Of a stretch of 64,000 nucleotides of DNA, positions 12,697 through 48,273 are shown one piece after another. Every line of letters starts with the position of its first letter. The stretch's first letter is position 1. The stretch is from a virus. The notes beneath the pieces were generated by a model that was given only the letters and a program-made list of their open reading frames with translations, was not told where the DNA came from and searched no databases. Location of the stretch: IMG/VR virus record IMGVR_UViG_2922401287_000005, positions 29,641 to 93,640 of that record, one strand, 5' to 3'. Made by a program: the position numbers and the translations under genes.

Positions 12697-12727
12697 AAAG
12701 GGGCCGCCCTGCGAAGGCGACCCCTTT
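12697..12727 (-). promoter_or_regulatory. TTCGCAG-loop hairpin followed by a T-rich tract, upstream of terminase
   Basis: AAAGGGGTCGCC-TTCGCAG-GGCGGCCCCTTT on the minus strand. Confidence 0.65.
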
Positions 12728-12768
12728 CCCTGTCACTCCTCATGGGAGCGACGAACGTCGGCTAGAGC

Positions 12769-29963: not shown

Positions 29964-30006
29964 CCCCAACCGCCGTTTCGCAGACGGCACTCAAGGAGAC
30001 CATCCC

Positions 30007-30183
30007 ATGAAGTCCATCGTCCCGAACTACCCGATGCCCTCGCAGTCGATCCTCGTCCCCAACGAGACCGATGTCCGCGTCCGCCTCTGGGCGACGTCCT
30101 CCGTAACCATCTCGTGGGTCGAGATGGGCATGATCCTGGCCGCGCACGTTTGCCTCGGCTTCCTTCTCGGCCTCGCACTCTGA
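30007..30183 (+). CDS. Small membrane protein (58 aa)
   Basis: AAGGAGACC RBS; MKSIVPNYP...LGFLLGLAL. Confidence 0.6.
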   Translation: MKSIVPNYPMPSQSILVPNETDVRVRLWATSSVTISWVEMGMILAAHVCLGFLLGLAL

Positions 30184-30193
30184 GGAGGATCAC

Positions 30194-30436
30194 ATGCCCT
30201 GCCAACACCGAGACGACGGCCGCGGTCGCTGCATCGACTGCGATGAAGCGATCCCCGAGCCGCAGCTCAAGAAATACACGGTCACCATCCGGGAGACTGC
30301 CGTCTACCGGGTCGAGGTCGAGGTCGCGAACCGCGGCGAAGCCGAGGAGGCCGCGCTCGCGATCTTCCTCGACGCCGAGGACACCAACACGTTCTTCGAT
30401 CATGTCGAGCAACGCGACGCCGACGTCACCGGATAA
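30194..30436 (+). CDS. DpnD/PcfM-like small protein
   Basis: KKYTVTIRETAVYRVEVEVANRGEAEEAA; GAGGAG RBS. Confidence 0.6.
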   Translation: MPCQHRDDGRGRCIDCDEAIPEPQLKKYTVTIRETAVYRVEVEVANRGEAEEAALAIFLDAEDTNTFFDHVEQRDADVTG

Positions 30437-30480
30437 ACCCACCCGCCGCCTTCGCAGGACGGCATCACAAGGAGACCATC

Positions 30481-30834
30481 ATGGAACAATTCGTGACGAA
30501 GCTCGGCAAGACCCGGGCTGGAGACCGCACGCGCATCTGGATCGAGGGCAAACGCCTCACCGAACACGGCTTCAAGGTCGGCGACCTGTTCGCCAAGCAT
30601 TGGAACGAGAAGCATCGCGAGCTGGTGCTGTCGAAGATCCATCCGCGCACCACCGAGATGATGAAGCGCGAGAGCTACGGCAAGGTGTCCGGCAAGGGCG
30701 AGAAGCCGATCATCGACATCACTGGCGCCAAGATGCAGGCGACGTTCGGCCTGTTCGAGAGCGTCGTCGTTACCTACGACCGTGGCTCGATCCGGATCGA
30801 GTTGGGGACCGCGATCAAGGTCGGGAGGGTCTGA
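30481..30834 (+). CDS. Hypothetical protein (117 aa)
   Basis: Hairpin + AAGGAGACC RBS. Confidence 0.75.
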   Translation: MEQFVTKLGKTRAGDRTRIWIEGKRLTEHGFKVGDLFAKHWNEKHRELVLSKIHPRTTEMMKRESYGKVSGKGEKPIIDITGAKMQATFGLFESVVVTYDRGSIRIELGTAIKVGRV

Positions 30835-31103
30835 TGAGCACCACCCACCTGATCGCCATCAACGGCGACCTGCTCTCGCGCATCAACGACGACCCGGCGG
30901 CATTCGCCGACGCCGTCGTTGCGATCTGCTCGCGCTCCGGCGGATCGCCGGCGGACCGAGAGCACCTCCAGCAGTTCGGAGCGAAGTATCTCAACGCCAG
31001 CATGAACGGCGCCGACGCCGCCCTTCGAGCGTTCCTCGCAGCTGACTGGGAGCTCTTCACCGGGCATCCGCCCTGTCAGTACGTCGCACCTCGCGACAAG
31101 TAA
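30834..31103 (+). CDS. Hypothetical protein ending in a methyltransferase-like motif
   Basis: MSTTHLIAING...ADWELFTGHPPCQY. Confidence 0.6.
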   Translation: MSTTHLIAINGDLLSRINDDPAAFADAVVAICSRSGGSPADREHLQQFGAKYLNASMNGADAALRAFLAADWELFTGHPPCQYVAPRDK

Positions 31104-31149
31104 CCCACTCACGCCCGTTCGCAGCGGGCTCAACAAGGAGACCACCATC

Positions 31150-31359
31150 ATGACGAACGAAGATCGCCGACAGCACGGCCGCGCCGTGCTGCAGACTTAC
31201 GAGGCCCTGCCGGGCGTCGAGACCCGCGCCGATGGCGCGCCGCTCGATCAGGTCCTGACCGACCTGCTTACCGACCTCCGCCACACCGTGTCGATGGACG
31301 TGTTCGCGAAAGCGGTTAGCCTGTCGGAGACGCACTTCCATGCCGAGGCAGGCCGATGA
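31150..31359 (+). CDS. Hypothetical protein (69 aa)
   Basis: Hairpin + RBS; DLLTDLRH motif. Confidence 0.7.
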   Translation: MTNEDRRQHGRAVLQTYEALPGVETRADGAPLDQVLTDLLTDLRHTVSMDVFAKAVSLSETHFHAEAGR

Positions 31360-31403
31360 GGAAAACATCCCCAATATTGTACCTTACGGACCCAGAGGCT
31401 ACC

Positions 31404-32261
31404 ATGAGTGACGCCGGGAATCCTTTCACACCCGGCAGGCCTCGGAGCCTGTGGGAAATGATAAACTGCTCGGTTATGGCGATTTGTTCGATTGGGTCTC
31501 AATTCATGCTCGAACAGCTTATGCGTGAGGATGATTTACCCGGGCCATTGTCTCTTGAAGAGTCCATGAAGCAATTAACAAGTGAGGAAGCGTTCAAAAT
31601 CGGGAAATGGATGGATGAAGCCGAGTCTATATCGAAAGATTTTGAATGCACCGCCGCGTTAGAGCGAATTGCGATCATCCGTAAATCCCTTGCTCGGGGA
31701 ATGACGCATCGTGTTCTTTGTGTGGAACTCCGGGTATTGCGAGAGACCATAGACAGCGGCCTGAACAATCAGTTGATCTATCGATATCCAGCCGAAAAAG
31801 CCCGGGTATTTGGCAACTGGAAATCGGATTGGGAAAAAGTCATCGTGGCCTTCCCGTCCGCAAAAAAGGATATTCTAGAATGCGTTGACCTTTGGGCTAT
31901 GGCTCATCCCACAGCTAGCGTATTTCACGCCATGCGCATCCTTGAGCATGGACTCCGCGCGCTGGCTAAGCACGTTGGCAAGACCTTCGATATTCAGAAT
32001 TGGCAAAACATAATCGATGAAATCGAAAGCGGGATTCGAGATCGAGCCAAAAAAATGCCGAGAGGGAGCGACAAGAACGAAAAGTTGAAATTCCTGTCAG
32101 AGGCCGCGAAGGAATTTACCTATTTCAAAGACGGATGGCGCAATTACGTTTCGCACAATCGATCCGACTATGATGAGCATCAGGCCCGGAGTGTGTACGA
32201 ACATGTGCGCACGTTCATGACCGTACTTTCTTCGCAGATGGGCGAGGTGACGACCCGATAA
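31404..32261 (+). CDS. HEPN-domain protein in a low-GC insert
   Basis: ASVFHAMRILEHGLR helix and WRNYVSH (Rx4H) motif; AT-richer than its flanks. Confidence 0.75.
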   Translation: MSDAGNPFTPGRPRSLWEMINCSVMAICSIGSQFMLEQLMREDDLPGPLSLEESMKQLTSEEAFKIGKWMDEAESISKDFECTAALERIAIIRKSLARGMTHRVLCVELRVLRETIDSGLNNQLIYRYPAEKARVFGNWKSDWEKVIVAFPSAKKDILECVDLWAMAHPTASVFHAMRILEHGLRALAKHVGKTFDIQNWQNIIDEIESGIRDRAKKMPRGSDKNEKLKFLSEAAKEFTYFKDGWRNYVSHNRSDYDEHQARSVYEHVRTFMTVLSSQMGEVTTR

Positions 32262-32273
32262 TCCGATCTAGAG

Positions 32274-33000
32274 TGCGGTCAAATTCTTTCCCGGTTTCAT
32301 CCACGCCAAGGTCCTGATCGCCTGCGAGTACACCGGCCCCGTGCGACGCGCATTCGCCGCACGGGGCCATGATGTCTGGTCCTGCGACCTGCTTCCCTCG
32401 CCCGATGGCAGCAACCGCCACATCGCCGACGACGTCCGCAACGTGCTCGACGACGACTGGGACTTCCTCACACCCGCCGTGCACCAGGCTCGCGAACAGC
32501 GGCGTGCGCTGGCTCGACGAGCCGCCCGGTCGACTGACGGCCGAGCACTACTCGGCGAAGGAGATCGCCGCCTACGCCACGATGAACCGGCGCGAGCGCC
32601 TGGACTTCATCTGGTTCAAGCTCGAGGAAGGCGCCAAGCTGTTCTCCACGCTCTGGGACGCGAAGATACCGCGCAAGGTGCTAACCCGGTGATGCACAAG
32701 CACGCCAAGAAACGCATCCGCCGCTACCGCGAGTTTTCGCAGTCGATCCAGCCGTGGATGTTCGGCGACTTCGAGACCAAGCGGACGTGCTTCTGGACCG
32801 ACTTCGAGGGCGAGGACGCGCCGCCGCTCAAGCCCACCTACCGGACGATGGAAGAGTGCCGCAAGGCGCTCGACCTGCCGAGAGGTGCGAAGCCCGTCGA
32901 CCGCGTCCACAAGGCAGCCCCCGGCCCGAAGCGATGGGCCGAGCGCAGCAAGTTCTTCCCGAAGGTGGCGGAGCAACTCGCCATTCAATACGCAGGATAG
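32274..33000 (+). pseudogene. C5-cytosine methyltransferase-like gene, interrupted and frameshifted
   Basis: KVLIACE...GHDVWSCDL, HPPCTRLANSG, (E)NPVMH, IQPWMFG and KRTCFW lie in different frames; first two codons displaced to 31356. Confidence 0.8.
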
Positions 33001-33006
33001 GACGCC

Positions 33007-33246
33007 ATGACAGCGTTCATCTACAGCGATGCGATCGGCCGCTCCGGCGACTGGACCAAACAGGCGCACCCTCGGATGCACAAGTTCGATCAGTACTATC
33101 ACGAGGGCAAGAACGCCTACCTCAGCGTCATGAAGGACGGATCGTGGGAGCTGTTCCTGCCCGTCGAGGTCGCCGGCATCGAATGTTTCCCCAGTGCGCC
33201 AACGCACCGGGGCACGACCGAGCAGGAGCTCGTCCCCTACCTGTAA
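33007..33246 (+). CDS. Hypothetical protein (79 aa)
   Basis: ORF with AGGA RBS. Confidence 0.6.
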   Translation: MTAFIYSDAIGRSGDWTKQAHPRMHKFDQYYHEGKNAYLSVMKDGSWELFLPVEVAGIECFPSAPTHRGTTEQELVPYL

Positions 33247-33290
33247 CCCTGCCCCGTTTCGCAGACGGGCAACTCAAGGAGACCAACCAC

Positions 33291-33548
33291 ATGAGAACAC
33301 TCTATCAATACACCGACCCGAAGATCGGCGCGAAGATCAAGCTGGTCGAGCGGACCACGCTCGTGCCCGCCACGCCGTTCCAGCGGGCGACCGAGCGCAA
33401 GGCCTTCGCCGTCACCCTCGACATCCCCGGCGAGTACGCGACGTTCGAGAGGTACGACGACGTCGAGTACGCCGCCGGCGCCTTCATCAACACGTGCGAG
33501 ATGTTCGGCGACGTGATGATGCGCAATCACGTGGTGTTCCTGCCATGA
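33291..33548 (+). CDS. Hypothetical protein (85 aa)
   Basis: Hairpin + RBS; MRTLYQYTDP... Confidence 0.7.
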   Translation: MRTLYQYTDPKIGAKIKLVERTTLVPATPFQRATERKAFAVTLDIPGEYATFERYDDVEYAAGAFINTCEMFGDVMMRNHVVFLP

Positions 33549-33850
33549 GAAAGAGCAACGTCGGACCGCTGGTCGACGAGCTGGGCCTGCTGGAGGCCAG
33601 GATCGCCGACATCGAGATCATGGCCCAGCCGCTCCGTGACCAGATCAAGGCGATGGGCGCCGGAGCCTACGAGGGCGAGCTGTTCCGGGCGGTCGTCTCC
33701 GAATACGACCGCAAGAACCTCAACATGAAGGCGGTGAAGCAGAAGCTCTCCCCGCAGTTCATCCGCGCCCACACCAAATACACGCCGACCACGAGCCTCA
33801 CCGTCAAGGGGCGCAACGCGATCGACGTGACCACCGAGGGCGACGACTAG
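33545..33850 (+). CDS. Hypothetical protein (101 aa)
   Basis: ATG overlaps the upstream stop; MRKSNVGPLVDELG... Confidence 0.65.
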   Translation: MRKSNVGPLVDELGLLEARIADIEIMAQPLRDQIKAMGAGAYEGELFRAVVSEYDRKNLNMKAVKQKLSPQFIRAHTKYTPTTSLTVKGRNAIDVTTEGDD

Positions 33851-33928
33851 TCGCCTTCCACGACCCGGCACCGGGCCTTCGCAGGGCCCGGGCCGGAGAC
33901 CTGCAACCTCAAACAAGGAGACCATCCC

Positions 33929-34615
33929 ATGAGAACCATCACGATCGAGCTATTCCAGTTCGACGAATTGAGCGACGCCGCCAAGGTGAAGGCGCGCGAC
34001 TGGTATCGCGAGGCGAGCGCCGGCGACATCGACTTCGCCGACAGCATCTACGAGGACGCGAGCGAGATCGCCACGCGGCTCGGCATCACGTTCAAGCTCC
34101 GGACCTGCCAGACGGTCGGCGGCCGAACCTTCACGCAGCCCTGCATCTGGTGGAGCGGCTTCTCGTCTCAGGGCGATGGCGCCTGCTTCGAGGGTGGCTA
34201 CGGCGCACCGGAGGCCAGAGAAGGCAAGGAAGCGTGGGCATCGTTGAGCGCGCTGGATCGCGTGAAGGAGTACGCCCCGACCGACGAGGTGCTGCACGGC
34301 ATCGCCGGCAGGCTGGACGCCTTGCAGGCGAAGTGCTCGCAGCGCCTCACCGCGATCATCACCCACCGGGGCAACTACTACCACGCCCTCACGATGGACG
34401 TGGACGCCGAGCTGCTCAATGCGGACAGCGAGGCGATCGACATCGCGGAGGATGACGAGAAGGAGCTGCGCGAATGCTTCGTTGCCTTCGCCAACTGGAT
34501 TTACCGCGAGCTTGAGGAGGAGAACACCTACCGGAACACGGACGAGTACGTGGACGACACCATCCGCGCCAACGAGTACGAGTTCCACGCCGACGGCCGG
34601 AGGGATCGCACATGA
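33929..34615 (+). CDS. Conserved mobile-element protein (family often labelled antitoxin of TA stability system)
   Basis: FQFDELSDAAKVKARDWYR and WSGFSSQGDGACFEG motifs. Confidence 0.7.
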   Translation: MRTITIELFQFDELSDAAKVKARDWYREASAGDIDFADSIYEDASEIATRLGITFKLRTCQTVGGRTFTQPCIWWSGFSSQGDGACFEGGYGAPEAREGKEAWASLSALDRVKEYAPTDEVLHGIAGRLDALQAKCSQRLTAIITHRGNYYHALTMDVDAELLNADSEAIDIAEDDEKELRECFVAFANWIYRELEEENTYRNTDEYVDDTIRANEYEFHADGRRDRT

Positions 34616-34836
34616 GCATCCAGATCGCCCGCGATTCCTTCGCCCGTCAGGACCTGTGCCGCGAGGTCGTCGCAACCTCGCAGGACTGCGATTGGTGCGG
34701 CGGCTTCCGCTATCGCAGCGGCCGCAAGCTGCAGGCCCTGTTCCGCTACAGCACCGAGACCGACGGCGGCCGCACGCACGATCATCGCGGCCTGTTCTGC
34801 TCGAAGGGCTGTCACGACAGCTACCACGACCAATGA
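34612..34836 (+). CDS. Small Zn-finger protein
   Basis: CDWC and FCSKGC. Confidence 0.65.
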   Translation: MSIQIARDSFARQDLCREVVATSQDCDWCGGFRYRSGRKLQALFRYSTETDGGRTHDHRGLFCSKGCHDSYHDQ

Positions 34837-34985
34837 GCAAGCCCGTCTACATGGTGCTGCGCCGGGCGGAGCCCGGCACACACTACGTGCTTGCGACCCA
34901 TCGCAAGTTCTATCGCTACAGCGAGGCCGCCCTGTTCACCCAGAGCCTCGCTGTTTCCTGCAACCCCATCATCCTGATGATCTGA
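34833..34985 (+). CDS. Small hypothetical protein (50 aa)
   Basis: ATG overlaps the upstream stop. Confidence 0.5.
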   Translation: MSKPVYMVLRRAEPGTHYVLATHRKFYRYSEAALFTQSLAVSCNPIILMI

Positions 34986-34999
34986 CAAGGAGACCAACC

Positions 35000-35437
35000 G
35001 TGATCCGCAATACCCCCACCTTCCGCTTTAAGTGCGCCTACATGGGCTGCGTCGAGTACGAGGTCTGCGACGAGAGCGGACACTACCTCGTCGAGATCAG
35101 GGAGCGCAGCCCGGACGCCTACGCCCTGTCGATCGCCAACGGCGACGGCGTCCGCTCCGAATGGAAGTCGTCGGTCGGTATCCTTCGCCGCGCCTCCGGC
35201 TGGAGCAAAGGCGAGAACGGCCGCTACTCGTTCGAGGTCGCGCCCGACACGGTGGACGCCTTCAACGAGTGGCGCATGGAGGAGCACCTCGCCGCGATCG
35301 CCAAGATCGAGGCGCAGCCCGAGCGCTACGGCGTTCTCACCGCTGACGATCCGATCCGCCGTCCGCCTCCGCTGGCGCGCGGCGGCGACTACCGGTTCGG
35401 TGAGTATGTCTGGGACGTCACCCATGCCCTCGCCTGA
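35000..35437 (+). CDS. Hypothetical protein (145 aa)
   Basis: AAGGAGACC RBS, GTG start. Confidence 0.7.
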   Translation: MIRNTPTFRFKCAYMGCVEYEVCDESGHYLVEIRERSPDAYALSIANGDGVRSEWKSSVGILRRASGWSKGENGRYSFEVAPDTVDAFNEWRMEEHLAAIAKIEAQPERYGVLTADDPIRRPPPLARGGDYRFGEYVWDVTHALA

Positions 35438-35441
35438 TCGC

Positions 35442-35666
35442 ATGACGCACGACTGGCAGCCGCTTCCCGCCGCCGATGGCTGCGCGACCAAGGGGAAATG
35501 GGAGCACGTCCCCGGCAAGCCGGTCTGCCTCGTGCGGACCGAGCCGACGCCGCAGGGGTTTCTGTGGCAGCACGGCAAGCAATACGGCTTCGGCAAGACC
35601 CTTGCCGAGGCCAAGGAGTGGGCGGAGGCAGCCAGAGAGTTCTGGCCGCGTCATCTGCCCGGATAA
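35442..35666 (+). CDS. Hypothetical protein (74 aa)
   Basis: MTHDWQP...; TLAEAKEWAE motif. Confidence 0.55.
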   Translation: MTHDWQPLPAADGCATKGKWEHVPGKPVCLVRTEPTPQGFLWQHGKQYGFGKTLAEAKEWAEAAREFWPRHLPG

Positions 35667-35744
35667 CGACGACCCCGCGCGACCGATTTCGCAGATCGCC
35701 GCGCGGGCCCCACCCGGATCACCTCACACAAGGAGACCATCACC

Positions 35745-36697
35745 ATGGGTTACACCCACTACTGGACGCAGAAGCGCGACTTCACCAAGACGCAGTGGAC
35801 CGAGATCACCGCCGACATCAAGGCGATCCTGGCCCACGCCCAGCACGTCGAGGGCATCGTGCTCGCCGGCGCCGGCGGCGAAGGCAAGACCTCCCCGCAG
35901 TTTGACGCCGACGCGATCATGTTCAACGGCCTCGGCGACGACAGCCACGAGACGTTCGTCGTTCACCGCAAGCGGCCGCCGCTGGAGGAGTGGCAGACTC
36001 CGGACCGCCGCGGTTGGGACTTCTGCAAGACCGCCCGCAAGCCATACGACCGCGCCGTGGTCGCCTGCCTGTGCTACCTCGCGACCGTGACGCGGAAGGA
36101 GGACCCGACGACCCACGAGCCGATCATCGGCAGCGAGGCGTTCTCGGTGTCGTCGGATGGCGACACCGCCGACTTCCTCGCCGGCCTCGACATGGCGCGG
36201 GTGGCGTTGCCGCAGTATGGCAACGTCCTCGACCTGCCGCTCACGCTGATGGAGAACGACCGCTGGTGCGCGCCGTGGATTTACCTGCGAAGCAACAAGC
36301 CGAAGCACGAGGTGCACTTCTGCATCGACGGTCACGGCTATGTGCTCAAGGGCAAACAGAGCTACCGCTTCGAGACGCACGAGGCGCTGGCCCGATGGCT
36401 GGAGAGCACCAAGGCGGCCCGGATGCACGGCTGGAAGGCGGCCGATACCGGCTGGGGCACTTATCCGTCGCATGAGCCCGACATCTGGAACGCGAGCGGA
36501 TCGTTCGACAACGTGCGCACCAGCGCATTGCGAAGGCGCAAGAGGTCGCGCTCGCAACGCTGTTTCCGGTGCCCGCTGCCAACGCGCATCAGCCGCCGGC
36601 ATTCGTTCGCCCCGGCCAGATGCCGGAGAACGGCGGACGCGAGTTCTGCTACAGCGTCACCGAGCTGCTCGACCGCCTGTCGGTGAAGGCGGCCTGA
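35745..36697 (+). CDS. Hypothetical protein with an apparent 1-nt frameshift near 36509
   Basis: MGYTHYW...FCKTARKPYD motif; the alternative frame continues QRAHQRIAKAQ...VKAA to TGA at 36697. Confidence 0.65.
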
Positions 36698-36769
36698 TAC
36701 CCGATACCGCGCGACGGCTTTCGCAGAGCCGCCGCGCGCCCCATCCCCATCATCATCAAGGAGACCAAC

Positions 36770-37039
36770 ATGACCCGCATTATCCTCAAGTGCTATCCCG
36801 CCTCCCGCGTTGACGGCAACGTCCAGATCGCGGTGACCTCCGACGGCCCGCACCCGCAGCGGACCGTGGAGATCGTCCGCGCGGCCGAAGCCGAGGCCGA
36901 GTTCAAGGCCTACTGCGCGGAGGTCGAGGCCACCGGCAAGGGCGCGGCCGTCTCGATGTCGCTCGGCCGGGGCGAGCGCGCACCGAACGGCTTTCACAAG
37001 CTGCCCGGCGCCAAGACCTTCCACCCCGTCAACATCTGA
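36770..37039 (+). CDS. Hypothetical protein (89 aa)
   Basis: Hairpin + RBS. Confidence 0.7.
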   Translation: MTRIILKCYPASRVDGNVQIAVTSDGPHPQRTVEIVRAAEAEAEFKAYCAEVEATGKGAAVSMSLGRGERAPNGFHKLPGAKTFHPVNI

Positions 37040-37097
37040 CGACCAACGGCGCCGCTTCGCAGGCGGCGCCCTTCCCCATCACAAGGAGACCAGATCA

Positions 37098-38453
37098 ATG
37101 AACGCTCACGTCAAGATCGGGCAAGAGATCGCCCGCCAACGCAGCCTGCCCGAGATCATCGCCGAATACGAGGCGAAGGCGCAGGCCATTGCCGACGGCC
37201 TGCGCGCCTGCGGCAAGGCGCAACTCGACCTGCAGACGACGGCAACGCTTGCCGGCGTCTACGGCAACAGCCACCTCGACTTCAAACTGCCGTCCGAGCG
37301 AGACCTGCACCAGCACCTGCTCAGGTCCGCGTGGCTGCACGCCTACGCTGGCTGCAACATCGAACTCCTGTCGTCGCCGACCGACAAGAGCCTGTGGAAG
37401 CAGCAACTGGAGAAGCTTCCGCCCTTCACGCTGGAGAACATCCGCGAGCTGTTCGGAAAGTTCCTGATCGACCCCCGCGCCAGTATGCTGCGCGGGCTCG
37501 CCGAAGTGTTCTGTGGCCTGGACCAAGCCTTCAAGAGCCACGACGTCGTGAAGATCGGCGTCAAGGGTCTGCCGAAGCGCATCATCATGTCGGGCTTCTC
37601 CAAGTATTCGACCTACGGCCGGGAAAAGCTGGAGACGGTCCTCAATGCGCTGGCTGCCTATCAGGGCAAGCCATTGGTCGATCACGTCGAGCTGAGCGCC
37701 ATCTTCGACAACGAGGACGCGCTGCTCAAGGCAGGGACGCTGACGAAGTACGACAAGACCACGATCGAGCACCCTGCCCGTGGCGTCCGCCTGCGCACAT
37801 TCGACAACGGCAACGGTCACCTGTTCTTTGAGCCCGACACGCTCAAGGACGTGAACCTGGCCCTCGCCGAGTTCTACGGCGACGTGCTGCCCGACACCCC
37901 GGACGAGAACCCGGTCAAGGCGAAGTCGACCGCGGTCTCCAAGGACCTGCAGTATTACCCGACGCCGGTGAAGGTGGTCGAGGCGATCTTCGATCGCATG
38001 TACCGCAACTTCGAGGGCGAGCGGGTGCTGGAGCCATCGTGCGGCGACGGCCGCATTCTGGACGCCCTCGTCAAGCGCAAGGCCATCGTCTACGGCATCG
38101 AGGTCGATCCGATGCGCGCCGTGCAGTCCCGCGCCAAGGGACACTCGGTGCTGATCGCCAACTTCCTCGAGTGCGCGCCGAACCCGATCTACGACCGGGT
38201 GGTGATGAACCCGCCCTTCTACGGCACGCACTGGGCCAAGCACGTCCGCCACGCCTATGACTTCCTCAAGGCCGGCGGCACGCTGACGGCGATCCTGCCG
38301 GTAACGGCGCGCGATAGCGGCCTGATCGACGATCTGGTCGGCAAGGACCGCTACAACGATCCGTGGCACGACCTCCCGGTCGGGTCGTTCTCCGAGAGCG
38401 GCACCAACATCAACACGGTGTGCGTCAGCATCCACAAACCGGGAAAGAGGTGA
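37098..38453 (+). CDS. DUF4942-type N6-adenine DNA methyltransferase
   Basis: QYYPTP, VLEPSCGDG (SAM binding), VMNPPF (catalytic), FSESGTNI. Confidence 0.85.
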   Translation: MNAHVKIGQEIARQRSLPEIIAEYEAKAQAIADGLRACGKAQLDLQTTATLAGVYGNSHLDFKLPSERDLHQHLLRSAWLHAYAGCNIELLSSPTDKSLWKQQLEKLPPFTLENIRELFGKFLIDPRASMLRGLAEVFCGLDQAFKSHDVVKIGVKGLPKRIIMSGFSKYSTYGREKLETVLNALAAYQGKPLVDHVELSAIFDNEDALLKAGTLTKYDKTTIEHPARGVRLRTFDNGNGHLFFEPDTLKDVNLALAEFYGDVLPDTPDENPVKAKSTAVSKDLQYYPTPVKVVEAIFDRMYRNFEGERVLEPSCGDGRILDALVKRKAIVYGIEVDPMRAVQSRAKGHSVLIANFLECAPNPIYDRVVMNPPFYGTHWAKHVRHAYDFLKAGGTLTAILPVTARDSGLIDDLVGKDRYNDPWHDLPVGSFSESGTNINTVCVSIHKPGKR

Positions 38454-38456
38454 GCC

Positions 38457-38702: not shown

Positions 38703-38744
38703 AGCCCCGGGCTTTCGCAGGCCCATCACAAGGAGACCAAGACT

Positions 38745-39341
38745 ATGCCTGATACCACATGGACCACGATGCACGTCGGCGGCGCGCTGCCGTCCGACAA
38801 GATCGAAGCGTTCCTCGAAGCAATCGAGAACGACTTCTCCTACGAATGTCAGGAGGCGCCCGACGACGAAGAGGATCTTCGTGCGATCGTCGCCAAGGGC
38901 GAGAGCGTCAAGCTGCAGGCGCACGTCTACGGCAACCCGGATAGGGTCGTCGCCTTCTGCAAGGAGAACGGCCTGCCGTTCTGGATGCACTGCGAGGCTG
39001 GCTACGAGTGGGACGCCTTCATCTCGATCTGGGCGCCCGGCATGGCGAAGGAGGAAGAGTGCCCGGCCTCCGGGCAGGGCTACACACCGCAGGTCGATCT
39101 ATCGACCCTGCGAACGTGGGCCGGCAACGGCATCCTGATGCTCATAAGGGATGTCGAGCGGTTCGAGAGCGAGCGCGTCCCGCCGCTGACCATCACAGAG
39201 ATGGTTGAGACGGGCGAGCCGATCGGCGCCATCACGCCGTCGGGTGATCGCCTCGATCACTGGGACGAGCGGCTGCGCGCCGCCGACTGCACCCTGATCT
39301 ACCGCATGGTGCCGAAGGTGGAGGAGAAGTCCAATGTCTGA
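38745..39341 (+). CDS. Hypothetical protein (198 aa)
   Basis: Hairpin + RBS; acidic. Confidence 0.7.
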   Translation: MPDTTWTTMHVGGALPSDKIEAFLEAIENDFSYECQEAPDDEEDLRAIVAKGESVKLQAHVYGNPDRVVAFCKENGLPFWMHCEAGYEWDAFISIWAPGMAKEEECPASGQGYTPQVDLSTLRTWAGNGILMLIRDVERFESERVPPLTITEMVETGEPIGAITPSGDRLDHWDERLRAADCTLIYRMVPKVEEKSNV

Positions 39342-39714: not shown

Positions 39715-39843
39715 GCACATTCGACCGAGACCTCACGTTCTTCATGATCGGCGCCGCTGTCGGCGCCCTCATGGCGATCGGGTGGCAGCTTCACTAACCA
39801 ATCCCAACGGGCTTCGCAGGCCCATCATCAAGGAGACCAGACT

Positions 39844-41082
39844 ATGAGTCATTTCACCGTTCTCGTGATCTCGCCGAGCGAGCTTACCGACGACGCCCTC
39901 GAGCCGATCCTGGCCCCGTGGCATGAGTTCGAGAGCACCGGCGTCGACGATCAGTATGTCGTCGATGTCGACAAGACCGAGGAGGTCCTCGCCGAATATC
40001 GCGAGCAGACTCGCTCGATGATCCGTTCCCCTGACGGCATTCAGGTCGCGGCCCACGACGATCGGTTCTACCGCAACCCGACCGAGCAGGAGCAGCAGAT
40101 CATGGGCAAAGTCCCGGGCACGGGAAGTCGCGGCGATTTGTCGTGGACGAGCAAGGACTGGGGTGACGGCCGGGGCTATCGCGGCAAGGTGCACTTCGTG
40201 CCTGACGGATATAGCAAGGTGGAAGTGCCGTGCAGTGAGGTCATGACCATCGCCGAGTTTATCGACTGGTGGCACAGCGGCAAGATCGTTCGCAGCGAGG
40301 CCGAGATCGACCGGAAGGGCGAGCACAAATACGGCCACGCGCTCGTTGCCGAGAACGGCGACCTGATCCGGATGATCGACCGCACCAACCCGAACCGGAA
40401 GTGGGATGGTTGGACGGTCGGCGGCCGCTGGTCGGGCATGTTCGCCGCTCCCGGCTACGATCCCGAGAAGGACCCGGCCAATCAGGAGACCTGCACCCTG
40501 TGTGGCGGTTCCGGCCAGCGTACGTTTCGGGCGGAGGAGATCGTCTGCAACAAGTGCGATGGCAAGGGCACTGCGGTCAAGTGGCCGAGCAGCTGGGTCG
40601 ACATCGGCAACCGCGCCCAGCTCAAGGACATCCCGCTGGAGGCGATCCGCAACCACGCCGAGATCGAGGCGCTCAAGCTCCACGACAAGGCGCAGGAGGT
40701 GATCGCCGGCCGGGGCTTCAAACGGTGGGACGAGGTCAAGGCCGACAATGGCGGCGACATCGACAAGACCCGCGAGGCCTACCGCGGCCAGCAAGTGCTC
40801 AAGGACCTCGAGGAAGCCAAGCTGGTCAGCTTCTTCGATGACGACGAGATCATCGGACTGTTCTGGATGTCACGCGCAGATCGGGCCACCCGCGCTCGCA
40901 ACAACGCGCTTCGCACCTTCGCCGTCGTCAAGGACGGTCAGTGGTACGAGCGCGGCGAGATGGGCTGGTTCGGCTGCGTCGCTGACGAGAAGGACTCCGA
41001 ACAATGGTCGCGCGAGTTCGCGGCCCTGCTCGACGGCCTGCCGCCCGAGACCTGGCTCGCCGTCGTCGACTGCCACATCTGA
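39844..41082 (+). CDS. Phage protein with a DnaJ-like Zn-finger insert
   Basis: MSHFTVLVI start; NPNRKWDGWTVGGRWSG; CTLCGGSG/CNKCDGKG; ends AVVDCHI. Confidence 0.75.
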   Translation: MSHFTVLVISPSELTDDALEPILAPWHEFESTGVDDQYVVDVDKTEEVLAEYREQTRSMIRSPDGIQVAAHDDRFYRNPTEQEQQIMGKVPGTGSRGDLSWTSKDWGDGRGYRGKVHFVPDGYSKVEVPCSEVMTIAEFIDWWHSGKIVRSEAEIDRKGEHKYGHALVAENGDLIRMIDRTNPNRKWDGWTVGGRWSGMFAAPGYDPEKDPANQETCTLCGGSGQRTFRAEEIVCNKCDGKGTAVKWPSSWVDIGNRAQLKDIPLEAIRNHAEIEALKLHDKAQEVIAGRGFKRWDEVKADNGGDIDKTREAYRGQQVLKDLEEAKLVSFFDDDEIIGLFWMSRADRATRARNNALRTFAVVKDGQWYERGEMGWFGCVADEKDSEQWSREFAALLDGLPPETWLAVVDCHI

Positions 41083-41143
41083 TCTGAAACCCCAACCGGG
41101 GCCGCTTCGCAGGCGGCCCCATCATTCCACAAGGAGACCAACT

Positions 41144-43105
41144 ATGACTGACATCACCATCAACGGCCTGACCCGCGCCGACATCAAGGCGGGCGAGAGC
41201 TACGAGTTCCGCATGGGCGGCAGCATCCAGAGTATCGAGGTGCGCGCCGTCGGCGACGACGGCTTCATGACCCAGTTCGGCCCGATGCCGTGGAGCAACG
41301 CCGGAATGTTGACCCGGCCGACCCCGGCGACGACCATGGATACGCCGGAGATCAAGGCGATGGTCGCGGAGGCGGCCGCCGATGCCGAGGCCGCGGCCCC
41401 GAAGGGCCGCAGGACCAAGGCCAAGGCCGAAGCCAAGGCCGAGGTCGCGGCCGAGCTGCCCGCCACGGCGCCCGACCCGGAGCCCGCAGCGGTCCCGGCT
41501 CCCGCCAAGAAACCGAGCCTGACCCGGAGCCAAGAGATCGCCGCCGACGTGGCGGCGCTGCTCCGCGCTCGCAATCCGCTGTTGTGGATCGTGACCCGGG
41601 AGGAGGCCCGGGCGGAGCGCTACCTCGTGAGCGCCGCCGCCGCTGCTGGCTTCGTCCCGCGCATGTGGGATTGCGGTCAGGGCGTCACCGATGTCGCGGC
41701 CAAGGTCGAGAGCATCGGCTCCAACGACATCGGTGAGACGCTCGGCGCGATCCGCGCCCGGGCCGACGCCAAGTCCGACCGCGGCGCGTGGGTCATGCGC
41801 GATCTGCCGCCGTGGCTGGTTGGCCCCGCCGGCATGGTGACGTGCCGACAGGTGCGCAACCTGGCCCGCTTCCTGCCGGGCGTAGAGCGCGATGGCGCGC
41901 AGGCGCTGATCGTGCTGTCTCCGTCGGGCGATGTCCCGCCGGAGCTCGCCAACCACGCCACGGTGATCGAGTGGCCGATGCCGGATCGCGCCGAGATCGC
42001 CAGCCTGCTGGACGACACGATCAACGGCCTGCCCGACGAGATGCGGGAGTCGGCCGCGCCCAACGGCACCCGGGAGGCGGCGATCGACTCCGCGATCGGG
42101 CTCACCGGCGAGGAAGCGCAGGCCTGCTACTCGAAGTCGCTTGTGCAGCTGCGCAAGATCGACCCGACCGCCGTGTCGAGGGAGAAAAAGCGCGTCATCG
42201 CTCGCGAGAAGGTCCTCGAATGGTTCGACCCGATCCCCGGCGGCCTTGCGGCCGTCGGCGGTCTCGGCAACCTCAAGGACTGGCTGATGCAGCGTAAGCT
42301 CGCCTACTCCCCGGCCGCGCGCGCCTACGGCCTGCCGGCGCCGAAGGGCTGCTTCCTCGTCGGCATCCCGGGCTGCGGCAAGTCGCTGATCTCGAAGGCG
42401 ACCGCCACCGCCTTCGATGCGCCGCTGCTCAAGCTCGACCTGGGCGCGCTCAAGGGCAAGTTCGTCGGCGAGAGCGAGGCCAACATGCGCAAGGCGCTTC
42501 GGACCATCGAAGCGATCGGCCGCTGTGTGGTCTGGATCGACGAGATCGAGAAGGCCCTGACCGGGGCCACCGCCGGCGGCTCGGACGGCGGCGTCTCGTC
42601 GGACCAGCTCGGCGCGCTGCTGCAGTGGATGCAGGAGCGCACCAGCGAGTCTTTCGTGATCGCCACCGCCAACTCGGTGGCGACCCTGCCGCCGGAGCTG
42701 CTCCGCAAGGGCCGGTTCGACGAGTTCTGGTTCGTCGACCTGCCGAACCCGAACGAGCGGGTTGAGATCCTCAACGCAGGGCTCAAGGCGCACGGCCGCA
42801 GCTTCTCGGACATCAAGGCCGAGGAGATCGCCAACGTGGTCGCCGCGACCGACGGCTTCACCGGCTCGGAGATCGCAGCCATCGTCCCGGACGCCCTGTT
42901 CGCAGCGTTCGCAGACGGCGGCCGTCAGATCACCTGTGTCGATCTGGAGAAGGCGGCGAAGGCCGTGACCCCGCTCTCGGTCACCGCGAAGGACAAGATC
43001 GCGGAGCTGCGCAACTGGGCTGCTGGCAAGGCCCGTCGCGCCACCGACGAGTGGACCGCGGAGACGGCAAAGGTTCGCTCAACCGGCCGCGCCCTCGACA
43101 TCTGA
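41144..43105 (+). CDS. Ycf46-like AAA+ ATPase
   Basis: VGGLGNLKDWL, PKGCFLVGIPGCGKS (Walker A), VWIDEIEK (Walker B), PPELLRKGRFDE; start 41144 after hairpin + RBS. Confidence 0.88.
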   Translation: MTDITINGLTRADIKAGESYEFRMGGSIQSIEVRAVGDDGFMTQFGPMPWSNAGMLTRPTPATTMDTPEIKAMVAEAAADAEAAAPKGRRTKAKAEAKAEVAAELPATAPDPEPAAVPAPAKKPSLTRSQEIAADVAALLRARNPLLWIVTREEARAERYLVSAAAAAGFVPRMWDCGQGVTDVAAKVESIGSNDIGETLGAIRARADAKSDRGAWVMRDLPPWLVGPAGMVTCRQVRNLARFLPGVERDGAQALIVLSPSGDVPPELANHATVIEWPMPDRAEIASLLDDTINGLPDEMRESAAPNGTREAAIDSAIGLTGEEAQACYSKSLVQLRKIDPTAVSREKKRVIAREKVLEWFDPIPGGLAAVGGLGNLKDWLMQRKLAYSPAARAYGLPAPKGCFLVGIPGCGKSLISKATATAFDAPLLKLDLGALKGKFVGESEANMRKALRTIEAIGRCVVWIDEIEKALTGATAGGSDGGVSSDQLGALLQWMQERTSESFVIATANSVATLPPELLRKGRFDEFWFVDLPNPNERVEILNAGLKAHGRSFSDIKAEEIANVVAATDGFTGSEIAAIVPDALFAAFADGGRQITCVDLEKAAKAVTPLSVTAKDKIAELRNWAAGKARRATDEWTAETAKVRSTGRALDI

Positions 43106-43216
43106 TCCACAACCGCATGAGACCCGCACTGTTACGACAGTGCGGGAAGCGTCCATCCCGTGTACTATCAAACCGCGGTTTCGCAGACCGCACATTCCAG
43201 CAAGGAGACCCACACT

Positions 43217-44056
43217 ATGTCGATCATCAACACCACCATCCGTCCGGGCCGCATCGTTGTACTTCGGACCACGATCACCGGGAACGTCAACTACACCAAG
43301 TCGGTCATCGAGGCCGAGCGCGTCGAGGCGGACGGCGCCAAGCGCGCCAAATGGGAGACCGAGCGCGTCGTCATCAACCCGGACGAATACGAGGAGGCCA
43401 CCACGCTGCGCGACAAGGTCCGGCAGACCATCGCCGGCCTGTGCATCAAGACCACCTTCGGCCTGCTCTGCTCGGAGGAGAAGGTCGAGAAGCTCGAGGC
43501 CGCGTTCACCGAGGCGCGCCGGCTCGCCGACGAGTTCAACGGCCGCGCCTCCACGACCCAGATCAACGTGTTCGTGATCGCGGGCCGGGTGGCAGCCGAT
43601 GACGTCGAGGCGATGCGGGCGATCAACTCGGAGGTCCGCGAGCTGATGCAGGACATGGAGACCGGCCTGCAGAACCTCGATGCGAAGGCGGTGCGCGATG
43701 CCGCCAAGAAAGCGCGGCTGCTCGGCTCGATGCTCTCCGACGACGCATCGGAGCGGGTCAAGCAGGCCATCGAGACCGCCCGCAAGGCGGCCAACGACAT
43801 GGTCAAGGCCGCTGAGACGAGCTCGGCCGAGATCGACCTGCAGGCGATCCGCAAGATCACGGAGAGCCGCACCGCGTTCCTCGACATCACCGGCGACAAC
43901 GTCGAGATCGCGGCTCCCGTGCACGGCGCTCGCGCGCTCGACTTCGAGCCGACCGAGGGCCAGGCGCCCGCGTCCGCGCCCGAGGTCGACGAGGAGGTCG
44001 CGCCGATCGCTCCGGCTGCTCCTGCCGTCAAGGCGCCCCAGCTCGAGATGGACTAA
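43217..44056 (+). CDS. Helical hypothetical protein, partner of the AAA ATPase
   Basis: Hairpin + RBS; 279 aa, coiled-coil rich. Confidence 0.75.
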   Translation: MSIINTTIRPGRIVVLRTTITGNVNYTKSVIEAERVEADGAKRAKWETERVVINPDEYEEATTLRDKVRQTIAGLCIKTTFGLLCSEEKVEKLEAAFTEARRLADEFNGRASTTQINVFVIAGRVAADDVEAMRAINSEVRELMQDMETGLQNLDAKAVRDAAKKARLLGSMLSDDASERVKQAIETARKAANDMVKAAETSSAEIDLQAIRKITESRTAFLDITGDNVEIAAPVHGARALDFEPTEGQAPASAPEVDEEVAPIAPAAPAVKAPQLEMD

Positions 44057-44125
44057 CGACAACGACCCGGCGGGCTTTGCAGGCCCGCCGGCTTCGCTTC
44101 AACCCCAACATTCAAGGAGACCAAC

Positions 44126-44470
44126 ATGGCTTGTGACACATGGCGTGCCAACGAGAAGCAGACCCTTACCGAGCGCAAGGAAGAGATCAAGCGCGTGATC
44201 GACCTCGTCGCGCAGGAGATCGTCAAGGGGCGCGTTAAGCCCAAGGTGGGCGCGCAGGGCGCGATCACCTTCGAGGGACTGGACGCGGTCACCGACCGGC
44301 GCGGCGTCACCGACGCTTGCGTCTATCGCCGGATCATGTCGACCGGATCGGCAATGGCGAAGCAGCAGCTCGCCCGCGCCGAGCAACTGGCCGGACGCCG
44401 CGTCGAGGCGCGGGCGCTGGCCGGCGGCCACCACTCTCACGATGGAGGCACGACATGGCACAAGCACTAA
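44126..44470 (+). CDS. Hypothetical protein (114 aa)
   Basis: Hairpin + RBS. Confidence 0.75.
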   Translation: MACDTWRANEKQTLTERKEEIKRVIDLVAQEIVKGRVKPKVGAQGAITFEGLDAVTDRRGVTDACVYRRIMSTGSAMAKQQLARAEQLAGRRVEARALAGGHHSHDGGTTWHKH

Positions 44471-44619
44471 CGCCAAGGAGCCGGCTTCACTACGAGGCCG
44501 AGCTCTACACCCAATGCAATCGCTGGGACGACATCCACGTCGCCATCCGCGTGATGTGGCCGCATGGCGGCTGGATCGTCTGGAACTGGGACCTCTGCCG
44601 CTGGGATGACTGCGGATGA
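44455..44619 (+). CDS. Small Trp-rich hypothetical protein
   Basis: GGAGG RBS, MAQALTP... Confidence 0.45.
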   Translation: MAQALTPRSRLHYEAELYTQCNRWDDIHVAIRVMWPHGGWIVWNWDLCRWDDCG

Positions 44620-44870
44620 AGATGGCGAAAACCAAGCAAGTCTACATCTCGGTGTGCGTCGGAAGCGAAGGCGACACCGAATGCTTCCTGTTGACCAAGC
44701 GTCAGTTCAACGGGATGTCGAACGCCTCGGACCCCCTGCAGTGGATCATCGACGGCGGCGAGAAGCGCGACAAAGGGTTGAAGAAATTCGACTCGGTCAA
44801 GGACCTCTTCGCACATATCCGGGCCAACAATCTGGAGGTCGTCGAAGAGATCAACGGCCTTTTGTACTGA
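44616..44870 (+). CDS. Hypothetical protein (84 aa)
   Basis: Coupled ORF. Confidence 0.6.
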   Translation: MKMAKTKQVYISVCVGSEGDTECFLLTKRQFNGMSNASDPLQWIIDGGEKRDKGLKKFDSVKDLFAHIRANNLEVVEEINGLLY

Positions 44871-44889
44871 CCACCACAAGGAGACCAAC

Positions 44890-45129
44890 ATGAGCAAGAT
44901 GGTTAGAGTTTTACTCGACGACGAGACCGAGCGCCGGCTCGGCATCATTGCCAAAGCCCTCGACCGCAAGGAAGGCGACCTGATCGACTCGGCAGTGTCC
45001 GAGGCGATCAACGACTACTGGAAGAATTTCCAGTGCGGCTTGGGTGCGCTGGTGAACACCGCCAGTCACGCCGATCTGGATAACTGGGCGAGCGATGGAG
45101 GTCGACGTGAAGCTGTCGAAAGCCATTGA
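44890..45129 (+). CDS. Ribbon-helix-helix (CopG-like) protein
   Basis: MVRVLLDDETERRLGIIAKALDRKEGDLIDSAV. Confidence 0.65.
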   Translation: MSKMVRVLLDDETERRLGIIAKALDRKEGDLIDSAVSEAINDYWKNFQCGLGALVNTASHADLDNWASDGGRREAVESH

Positions 45130-45355
45130 ACAGCTTCAAGCGATCCAGGCCCGCTTCGGCGACCTCGACATCGTCGGCGGCTTCCTGCAGGACGACACGC
45201 CACTCGGTAACATATGTGTCGTCAACAGCGAGGGCATGGAGATCTTTGTCAATCGGCGTTTGACTGGGCCCCCCTATCGGCCTGCCGAAACACAGAGATC
45301 TTCCCCAAAGACCCGAACGGCGTCGGTCAGGCTGACGTCGAAGGCGTGTTTCTAA
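45107..45355 (+). CDS. Hypothetical protein
   Basis: GGAGG RBS, VKLSKAIEQLQ...; 3' part looks degenerate. Confidence 0.4.
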   Translation: MKLSKAIEQLQAIQARFGDLDIVGGFLQDDTPLGNICVVNSEGMEIFVNRRLTGPPYRPAETQRSSPKTRTASVRLTSKACF

Positions 45356-45398
45356 CCCCCTAGCCTGTTCGCAGCAGGCGCATTCAAGGAGACCATCA

Positions 45399-45865
45399 AT
45401 GTCTGACGTAAGCTACGGCCCGTCTACGAGCAGGAGGAGAAGCGCAACGACGCCATCGCCTGCGCCAAGGAGTGGGCTCGCATCTTCAAGGTCGACGGCG
45501 CCGATCTGTGGACCCGGACGATGCCGCAGGCGCTGTTCGACACGCTGGAGGGCTTCTCGCCGCAATGCGCCATCGTTGCGGCCGAGGCGTTCCTCAAGCA
45601 GTTCGGATGGAAGATCGAGCGGCCGGGCGACGAGACGCGCGCCGACGCCGTGCACGAGGCTCTCACCGGCCTCGTCGACGAGGTGGAGAAGCTCTACCAC
45701 CGCGCTCCGCGCCCTAGCGACCTGCCCCATGAGCCCGGCGTCTACGCCGCCAACATGCCGGACAGCCAGCGATGGTCCTGCCCGTACCACCCGAACGAGA
45801 TCGCCGAGCACATCCGCTCGAAGATCGACGACATCGTCGAGATCGCCGTCAATCCCGTTCGCTGA
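45399..45865 (+). CDS. Hypothetical protein with an apparent 1-nt frameshift at ~45420
   Basis: MSDVSYG joins PVYEQEEKRNDAIAC...NPVR if one C is added to a C run. Confidence 0.6.
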
Positions 45866-45993
45866 AACAAGGTGGGGCTGGAGTTCGCAGCTCCAGCCCC
45901 GGCTCAAGGGAGGTAAACCGCCAAGGAGACCATCCACGGGGTCCATCAACCAAGAGCATCCACATCACCTAACACAAACAAGGAGACCTTCAA

Positions 45994-46287
45994 GTGACCA
46001 ACACCGAAACGGTGCAAGAACATCTCGTCTCAGCTGGGGATACTGTCTGGGTCCTCGTGATCGACAACCGAAGCGGAACCCATGTCGACGCCTTCAAGAC
46101 GAAGGAGGCCGCCGACGCCGCGCTGTTCGATTATTGCGACGAGTGGTGGGATCAGGAGTTTGGCGCTCATAGCCGGCCGGCCGATGACCAGCTCGTCAAG
46201 ACCTACTGGGAGCGAGAGAGCGCGCGCGGCGAGGAATGGCACGTTCTGCAGGAGAGCCGGGTCAAGCAGCTCGCGGTCCCCGCGTAG
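45994..46287 (+). CDS. Hypothetical protein (97 aa)
   Basis: AAGGAGACC RBS, GTG start. Confidence 0.65.
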   Translation: MTNTETVQEHLVSAGDTVWVLVIDNRSGTHVDAFKTKEAADAALFDYCDEWWDQEFGAHSRPADDQLVKTYWERESARGEEWHVLQESRVKQLAVPA

Positions 46288-46430
46288 GACCCCGCAAAGG
46301 AATTGGGCGCGGCGACTTCGCAGGTCACCGCGCCGATCGTCGGCGCTGCCGTTTCAAGGAGACCATCCGAGAAGAAGGTGGCGCGCATCAACTACAACCA
46401 ACGTAGGACCACATGCATGGATAATCAACG

Positions 46431-48255: not shown

Positions 48256-48273
48256 CTAGACGCTGAAAAAGCC

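Follow-up and report, generated by a model that had tools for sequence, protein, structure and literature searches.

The window analysed here is a stretch of 64,000 nucleotides, bases 29641-93640 of a 105,413-bp provirus record (IMGVR_UViG_2922401287_000005; G+C 64.6%), and our subject is a repeated module, consisting of a hairpin with an invariant TTCGCAG loop and a ribosome-site box, AAGGAGACC, that recurs throughout one of its operons. Exact protein matches place the provirus in the 9.88-Mb chromosome record CP088288.1, and near-identical proteins carry the name Bradyrhizobium septentrionale. Along the window, head and packaging genes and many small genes on the minus strand (1-27900) are followed by a repressor-type switch (~27-29.5 kb), the plus-strand operon that holds the module array (~29.6-46.8 kb), insertion sequence (IS) transposases (47.0-50.5 kb), and a leftward, minus-strand operon with thyX, a helicase-type ATPase gene and a gene for a GcrA homologue (54-62 kb).

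The modules and the features related to them are given below by window position. SL1 and SL2 denote stem-loops 1 and 2 of a candidate RNA read from the minus strand.

29972..30009, plus strand: regular module 1, with a 5-bp hairpin, TTCGCAG loop, CA-rich spacer, CAAGGAGACCA box and ATG at 30007
30442..30483, plus strand: regular module whose stem is interrupted (GCCGcC/GaCGGC); box at 30469, ATG at 30481
31113..31152, plus strand: regular module, ATG at 31150; divergence between relatives falls exactly at 31113/31114, the base of its 5' stem arm
33253..33293, plus strand: regular module, ATG at 33291; a 79-aa gene directly 5' of it is present or absent in relatives
33871..33931, plus strand: regular module with a 7-bp stem, ATG at 33929
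35684..35747, plus strand: regular module with an inner 4-bp stem and an extended outer stem, ATG at 35745
36715..36772, plus strand: regular module, ATG at 36770
37048..37100, plus strand: regular module with an 8-bp stem, GGCGCCGC
38709..38747, plus strand: chimeric module
39809..39846, plus strand: regular module, ATG at 39844
41098..41146, plus strand: regular module ahead of an AAA ATPase gene, ATG at 41144
43175..43219, plus strand: regular module, ATG at 43217
44067..44128, plus strand: regular module with the sole loop variant of the array, TTTGCAG
45363..45401, plus strand: regular module common to three strains
45866..45960, minus strand: orphan module a, a candidate small RNA, with a -10-like TGT-TAGGTG, SL1, SL2 and then CCUUGUUU (5' end presumed)
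within orphan a, minus strand: SL1 with GGAUGGUCUCCUUG at its apex (plus-strand box 45922-45935), and SL2 at 45873-45901 with the loop CUGCGAA
46000..46016, no strand assigned: degenerate operator-like site, TGCACC-N5-GGTGCA (minus-strand reading CTTGCACC), ~70 nt upstream of orphan a
46296..46385, minus strand: orphan module b, with its box at 46355-46368 and a terminator-like hairpin at 46306-46334, loop CUGCGAA
56390..56428, minus strand: regular module of the leftward early operon, with a 5-bp stem, AAGGAGACC and an ATG
12693..12731, minus strand: 16-bp hairpin with the same loop and no ribosome-site box, then TTGTGG

An invariant loop and an invariant ribosome-site box

The TTCGCAG heptamer occurs 31 times in the window, against 14 +/- 4 in shuffled sequence (none of 100 shuffles reached 31), and AAGGAGACC occurs 24 times where shuffles lead one to expect 0.4. 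An earlier note on this DNA had described 16 hairpins between 29971 and 46345, 15 of them with the TTCGCAG loop and one with TTTGCAG, each followed by AAGGAGACC. We recovered all of them and found exactly that number, with loops starting at 29977, 30451, 31118, 33258, 33878, 35688, 36720, 37056, 38714, 39813, 41106, 43180, 44076 (TTTGCAG), 45368, 45884 and 46317. The box lies downstream of all 16, with an ATG 4-7 nt past it in 14; the last two (45884 and 46317) have no start codon. The stems of 30451 and 46317 are interrupted, and that of 38714 is chimeric. As delimited in the earlier note, the element had its hairpin and its box right, but the invariant block is wider on both sides and the last two hairpins are gene-less orphans.

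Further copies of the module lie in the leftward operon and beyond the right end of the window. The three minus-strand copies previously listed are all real hairpins, with stems of 16 bp (12709), 7 bp (56223) and 5 bp (56417), but the one at 56223 lies inside a coding region and the one at 12709 lacks AAGGAGACC. A TTCGCAC variant at ~55538, also put forward then, has only a 1-bp stem around its loop and is not a convincing member.

The comparison covered five records, the window genome (G000) and four others (G001-G004), together with two closely related prophages, L176 and L178. In a pattern scan of 2.9 million viral contigs, from which the window's own record may have been left out, the composite motif was found in multiple copies on G001-G004 only, and once on a fifth contig, L048. 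G001 (125 kb) and G002 (136 kb) are collinear with the window genome at ~50-70% protein identity, and the prophage G002 resides in Bradyrhizobium sp. Tv2a-2. G003 and G004, both fragments, belong to another phage type than G000-G002. At blastp E<1e-3, the two types have a few structural proteins in common; the only shared early protein is a weak AAA-ATPase match (27% over 150 aa), although the code is identical.

Among the hairpins of the five records whose loops are closed by at least 4 Watson-Crick pairs, 86 have the exact TTCGCAG loop, while the runner-up 7-nt loop is found in 8; one-base loop variants that we judged to be members number only 2. The stems consist of 4-13 pairs, 5 being commonest, and their sequences are almost all different. 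Alignment of 83 cores shows variation on both sides at each of the five inner pairs. Pairing is kept at 96% of the inner positions that were counted, in hairpins that had been pre-selected for at least 4 paired bases, and the real control is the loop census. The stem at 37048..37100 reads GGCGCCGC in the window and GGCCCCGC in the ortholog of a close relative, where the other arm has changed to match. For the TTTGCAG copy at 44076, both close relatives carry TTCGCAG on the same stem.

Loop bases that are frozen on stems that vary by compensatory change demand a folded single strand, and the element is under strong selection. The description of a phage-wide, strand-specific code with a fixed loop and a free stem is borne out by the 86 exact loops and by the orientation of the hairpins in same-strand gaps of G000-G002, which agrees with that of the genes in 57 of 57 cases. 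Conservation of the loop in relatives, on which that description turned, extends across the five records, and the code is essentially absent from host DNA.

From 5' to 3', a module follows an upstream stop codon and comprises a short C/A-rich, G-poor stretch, the stem, the loop, the second arm, a C/A-rich spacer and the box. The hairpin lies 5-12 nt from the stop codon, the base directly 5' of the stem is C in 64 of 86 copies, and the distance from hairpin to box is 2-51 nt, most commonly 5-7 nt. The invariant block is C-AAGGAGACC-A (CAAGGAGACCA), with the C present in 76 and the A in 65 of 77 copies. Its edges are sharp, the neighbouring positions carrying <0.2 bit, and the two known box variants both change ACC to ACT. 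AAGGAG alone, among the eleven bases of the block, pairs with the 3' end of the host 16S rRNA (GGAUCACCUCCUUUCU). The C and the ACCA are unable to do so and therefore need another explanation. Pairing of the loop with rRNA was also considered and was rejected, as the single G.U-containing 7-mer match in 16S rRNA is at chance level.

The regular modules contain no promoter-like or terminator-like signal. A sigma-70-like scan of 28000-46600 gave no promoter-like site at any module, and the plus-strand terminator scan flagged not one of the 14 regular modules, which disposes of the view that they are plain terminators. The element is tied to the translation starts of many small early genes, which supports the earlier note on this point. 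An intrinsic-terminator-like hairpin does occur at 29546-29566 on the plus strand (8 GC pairs, then TTTTTGTTGC), after the switch-region genes and ahead of the array's first AAGGAGACC, and expression of the array as a whole may require read-through or antitermination past it.

The element is a phage-specific code of early accessory operons and is essentially absent from the host outside the prophage. All 29 copies of the composite motif in the 8.5-Mb Tv2a-2 genome are within the prophage. Perfect hairpins account for 15 of 15 matches to a GC-flank pattern around the loop in that prophage, compared with 1 of 19 elsewhere in the genome, and the extended box is found 33 times in ~115 kb of prophage versus 11 times in the other 8.4 Mb. 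Within G000-G002, hairpins are lacking from gaps <25 nt and from the structural (late) halves, though there are 25-30 gaps of at least 25 nt per genome in those halves. Brevundimonas phage Polewnik, whose portal protein (42% identity) makes it the closest relative in culture, served as a negative control for the method and has no over-represented hairpin loop of any length. A megablast search of the operon against 50,697 phage records gave zero matches.

Orphan modules and a candidate antisense RNA

The two gene-less orphans of the window, at 45873-45945 and 46306-46370, have a box that reads CAAGGAGACCATCC, with an extra invariant UCC and no following start codon. L176 likewise has two orphans, and G001-G004 have one each; in L178, two hairpins are orthologous to the window orphans, an identification made from these hairpins. 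A pattern scan of metagenome contigs, in which 24 of 29 matches were chance ones without a stem, yielded five more orphans on soil-type contigs. Four of these five contigs also carry opposite-strand modules; the 1.2-kb L194 has none within its sequence. The orphan pattern occurs in 1 of 401 sampled host-family genomes, on G001-G004 among viral contigs, and on these five metagenome contigs. Three marine metagenome contigs with 37-42% G+C (L188, L189 and L192) share an identical chance match with the same tail, presumably part of a conserved unrelated gene.

The orphans differ from regular modules in several respects. Their stems have 7-13 pairs, at least 10 in most, versus a mean of 6, and most of them have 4-7 A in the 8 nt 5' of the long stem, versus a mean of 2.6 in 89 regular hairpins. 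None of those 89 has both a stem of 10 bp or more and 5 or more A in that stretch. The orphan box lies at the apex of a second hairpin, the lower stem of which differs between lineages. When an orphan is read on the opposite strand, the A-run becomes a U-tract, and in the terminator scan both window orphans, alone among the array modules, scored terminator-like on the minus strand.

On this opposite strand, SL1 displays a UGGUC tip on a GGA/UCC mini-stem within the invariant GGAUGGUCUCCUUG, the complement of the box, and SL2 displays the loop CUGCGAA, the complement of the module loop UUCGCAG. Two exposed segments thus correspond to two target boxes, CAAGGAGACCA and UUCGCAG, the first of which is at the ribosome site. 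Inspection with loose criteria showed a -10-like hexamer at 10 of 12 loci, its end lying 20-31 nt upstream of the 14-mer; six have an extended TGn, and TA dinucleotides, which are rare in this DNA, are clustered at that distance. In G000-G002 the degenerate TGCACC-N5-GGTGCA phage operator (CTTGCACC) lies a little upstream of the orphan. The two hairpins, the U-tract and the -10-like motif amount to a conventional small-RNA gene layout.

Scanning the whole window with cmscan at the Rfam gathering score returned tRNA only, and a permissive Rfam scan of 45750-46500 gave chance-level matches only, none of them to C4 (RF01695). Neither the composite nor the orphan architecture is in Rfam or in the literature searched, and a literature search with the loop sequence gave primer matches only. 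A conserved small peptide after the orphan box was considered and rejected, since the frame relative to the box differs between genomes. At six orphan loci (the 15506 region of G003, the 27694 region of G004, and L184, L187, L194 and L202) the inter-hairpin spacer keeps GGACAU or GGACAC right before a GGGGCG or GGGACC stem. The plus strand of this subgroup reads ATG or GTG directly after the hairpin, in a frame relative to the box that is not conserved.

We propose, with a probability that we put at about one half, that a trans-acting, phage-encoded antisense small RNA comparable to P1 C4 targets the two invariant blocks in each module. Hairpin and ribosome-site box would jointly make up a standard 5' adaptor for early accessory cistrons. 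The RNA would be made from the opposite strand of the gene-less orphan at the far end of the array and would be ~75-130 nt long, with two stem-loops. Its SL2 loop, CUGCGAA, would kiss the module loop UUCGCAG in a 7-nt loop-loop contact, and a second pairing would start at UGGUC:GACCA and spread across AAGGAG. The ribosome site would as a result be covered at every adaptor-bearing cistron (14 in the operon, 20-35 per genome), and the accessory set would be silenced or timed together. The minus-strand transcription, the pairing and the repressive effect are all predicted from the sequence. With the same two blocks kept in all modules, gene borders would share 7-30 nt of sequence at which crossovers could gain, lose or exchange cassettes.

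Such an RNA would explain why the stems are free whereas the loop is frozen at all seven bases and the box is frozen beyond its Shine-Dalgarno sequence. It would also explain why unrelated phages without a common protein have the same code, why the host is without the element, and why only early and accessory operons carry it. The YUNR U-turn motif is typical of antisense recognition loops (PMC4485353), and the module loop, which starts with UUCG, fits Y-U-N-R. The C-to-U change at 44076, the sole internal variant of the loop, and the two ACC-to-ACT box variants are transitions that keep a G.U pair with the proposed RNA, as the antisense idea would lead one to expect. The hairpin at 12693-12731, in the packaging-side operon, may be a further target of the loop of the proposed RNA, or it may be a terminator.

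Several observations weigh against an antisense RNA. None of the public RNA runs searched contains this DNA, and a strict sigma-70 consensus scan gave no minus-strand promoter in the window. The back of any module automatically complements all modules, so nothing is proved by complementarity in itself. G001 and G002 have a good U-tract; that of orphan a of G000 and of G003, G004, L187 and L202 is moderate, and that of L184, L194 and L206 is poor. Three to five loci must be counted as weak in this respect. Six of 8 folds give SL1 the greater stability on the antisense strand, but sense and antisense energies are mixed overall. By direct reading, G.U pairs at the base of the long stem point to the sense strand for G000-G002 but to the antisense strand for G003, G004 and L202, and internal G.U and A.C mismatches in regular stems number 4 and 5, respectively. 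Predicted duplex energies are strong for every GC-rich leader (~-36 to -38 kcal/mol, versus -45 to -48 kcal/mol) and give no clean split of the module leaders from other 5' leaders.

Alternative readings and cassette exchange

The earlier note took the hairpin to be a structure read by a protein. It could then be an RNA signal for processing, 3'-end protection or translational control, recognized by a host factor or by a small, fast-evolving phage protein, and the orphans could be special sense sites, for example high-affinity or decoy sites. A protein ligand would suit a loop that stays invariant on stems as short as 4 bp, which are too weak without one, and would suit the strand specificity and the fixed position of the hairpin, which is separated from the box by 5-7 nt and from the upstream stop codon by 5-12 nt. 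In G000-G002, G.U pairs at the base of the long orphan stems also point to the sense strand, and a code common to unrelated phages would be understandable if the reader were a host factor. However, no candidate emerged: 40 early or regulatory proteins contained no RNA-binding or nuclease family (Pfam, PHROGs), and the two carrier clades have no early protein in common at blastp E<1e-3, one weak AAA-ATPase match aside. A dedicated host reader would lack host targets, since the host genome is essentially without such a hairpin. The invariance of the box beyond its Shine-Dalgarno bases, the orphan A-run and the extra-long orphan stems would also be left unexplained. We consider a protein reader unlikely, and an RNA reader the better fit.

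The hairpin could instead act at the DNA level, as a recombination adaptor used by a structure-specific recombinase, as at attC, or through short homology, and kept for exchangeability; the earlier note had likewise suggested that it might be the recombination unit for swapping genes. Contigs of four public DNA runs and the prophages L176 and L178 were compared with the operon. L176 and L178 show many gene gains, losses and replacements relative to the window. The module at 38714 has the left flank and 5' arm of the module ahead of a 145-aa gene in L176 and the 3' arm and spacer of the module behind that gene, a chimera from which it follows that a crossover within GGGC(T)TTCGCAG removed or added a cassette. 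The module at 45363-45401 is identical in three strains and joins different genes in them: the upstream genes differ between the window and L176/L178, the downstream genes differ between L178 and the others, and the junctions are at the 5' stem base and right after the ATG.

Other strain differences begin at 31113, 33258 and 45363, which are stem bases or loop. A 7.3-kb segment, 46369-53654, replaces ~1 kb of two close relatives, and on the left it joins immediately behind the orphan box, at 46368; the replaced side is the DNA upstream of orphan b as its RNA would run. This segment, which holds IS elements, contains two DDE transposase genes (47007-48203 and 49340-50548) and small toxin-antitoxin-like genes. 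Modules are therefore used as crossover points, but they are not the sole ones, as many other breakpoints fall at plain start or stop codons without a module. The recombination claim accordingly stands for the crossovers of close relatives that lie inside modules and does not extend to those other breakpoints.

Three further features of the strain comparison may be recorded here. Within the operon, all three related public runs lack coverage of just one stretch, 31696-32269, which fits a strain-specific insertion. Around 45399-45432 the window has lost ~1.1 kb relative to L176, comprising five small genes and one module, and this deletion is not at a module. A fusion there now joins the first ~10 codons behind module 45368 to the body of a 181-aa gene (45423 onward).

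Crossovers inside modules, with the chimera at 38714, the module at 45363-45401 and the differences starting at 31113, 33258, 45363 and 46368, are what one would expect of a recombination adaptor, and the PeSL cassettes of T4-type phages provide a precedent (PMC2839356). As the reason for conservation, we give exchangeability little credence. Most other breakpoints have no module. A crossover in the variable stems would break pairing, yet 96% of the counted inner positions pair, and selection for future exchange cannot maintain a seven-base loop at 86:2. Neither a conserved stem box nor a recombinase turned up, and the fixed spacing to the ribosome site and the absence of the element from the equally mosaic late operons point to expression. 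We regard the use of modules in crossovers as a consequence of the shared adaptor.

Generic transcript hairpins that cause pausing or attenuation or stabilize 3' ends, with no specific reader and a loop kept for folding stability, would be at home just after stop codons in long operons, and the terminator-like 29546-29566 hairpin does stand ahead of the array. We find this explanation very improbable, given that the regular modules have no U-tract, that none is terminator-like, and that many stems are only 4-5 bp. The loop is not used by the host, Polewnik has no over-represented loop, and intrinsic stability fails to explain seven invariant bases or the adjoining box. Mimicry of a tRNA anticodon arm, as decoy or substrate for an anticodon-directed enzyme, is hardly credible: the commonest stem has 5 bp, the 7-nt loop fits Y-U-NNN-R, 6 of 7 positions match the host tRNA-Ala(CGC) loop UUCGCAA and the variant UUUGCAG has the Ala anticodon UGC, but a 6/7 match to one of ~50 tRNA loops has an estimated chance of ~0.07, the stems range over 4-13 bp, the linked box and the orphans go unexplained, and likeness to a U-turn is expected of an antisense loop anyway.

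Taking regulation and exchange together, we tentatively suggest a plug-and-play cassette system, in which a single master antisense RNA, encoded on the reverse strand of a dummy adaptor, might gate translation of all the accessory early genes by way of a two-box adaptor while this adaptor doubles as a crossover linker through which unrelated phages with the same standard trade genes; lineages with other boxes might then form separate exchange-and-immunity groups. If the antisense reading is true, one small RNA and a standard 45-nt adaptor would control dozens of unrelated accessory genes in a temperate phage, an antisense regulon far wider than the classic two-target P1 and P4 cases. Regulation would be tied to mosaic evolution, in that a gene acquiring the adaptor would become both phage-controlled and exchangeable, and there would be a testable mechanism for the silence of accessory arrays in lysogens and for their shuffling. 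The adaptor design could be reused for compact multi-gene control.

Two neighbouring genes deserve mention. The AAA ATPase at 41144-43105 (plus strand) belongs to PHROG 8638 and has 46% identity over 78% of its length to the AAA ATPase of Corndog-type Mycobacterium phages; a 64-65% relative is encoded on a Verrucomicrobia metagenome-assembled genome contig without the hairpin code. The phage also encodes a homologue of the GcrA cell-cycle regulator (61382-61942, minus strand; Pfam PF07750, E = 1e-23), and a TTCGCAG hairpin with a variant box, AAGGGGACC, is located at 61454-61472, close to the 3' end of this gene.

Comparison with known systems

In the C4 antisense RNA of the P1 and P7 immI regions and the CI RNA of satellite phage P4, small RNA segments pair with two short boxes and restrain lytic functions; the C4 antisense RNA was reportedly the subject of work by Citron and Schuster in 1992, cited in PMC8546580. 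The candidate RNA resembles C4 and CI in being a small, structured phage RNA whose exposed segments match a pair of short target boxes, with a ribosome site in one. It differs from C4 in having no Rfam match and in being encoded opposite a dummy target, whereas C4 is encoded upstream on the same strand. C4 has two targets, whereas 20-35 per genome are proposed here; one of the target boxes here is a hairpin loop, and no antirepressor gene was seen.

The stoperators of mycobacteriophage L5 are double-stranded DNA repressor sites without a flanking dyad that bring about genome-wide silencing. They too are short asymmetric motifs present in tens of copies in short intergenic gaps and in one orientation with respect to transcription, but the modules have covarying stems. 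The earlier note had listed boxB, RNase III sites, N4 hairpin promoters and integron attC sites as partial analogues, each of which fails in a defining feature. An attC site is likewise a folded, variable element at each cassette border of an array oriented with its genes. The modules have no R/L (R''/R') boxes and no extrahelical bases, conserve the loop and not the stem base, and stand 5' of the gene at the ribosome site; no integron integrase was among the proteins scanned, in a non-exhaustive scan. Compared with lambda nut/boxB, there is a 7-nt loop in place of a GNRA-like pentaloop, no conserved box 5' of the stem, and at least 14 sites per operon in place of one or two. N4 hairpin promoters have a 3-nt loop at a fixed distance and a giant virion RNA polymerase, whereas the hairpin-box distance here is 2-51 nt; no polymerase family was found, and the largest open frame in the 105-kb record is ~1,000 aa. 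Intrinsic terminators end in a U-tract, and regular modules continue into CA-rich spacers.

The PeSL cassettes of the T4-type phages RB49 and phi1 contain a strong sigma-70 promoter and a working terminator (Arbiol et al. 2010, PMC2839356). The likeness to the array lies in repeated modules between small non-essential genes, through which recombination inserts, deletes and replaces genes (PMC2839356). The modules described here have neither promoter nor terminator and consist instead of a variable stem that bears an invariant loop, with an invariant ribosome-site box behind it. Their most likely logic is a variant of the antisense-RNA control known from temperate phages, on an exceptional scale and linked to the exchange of genes.

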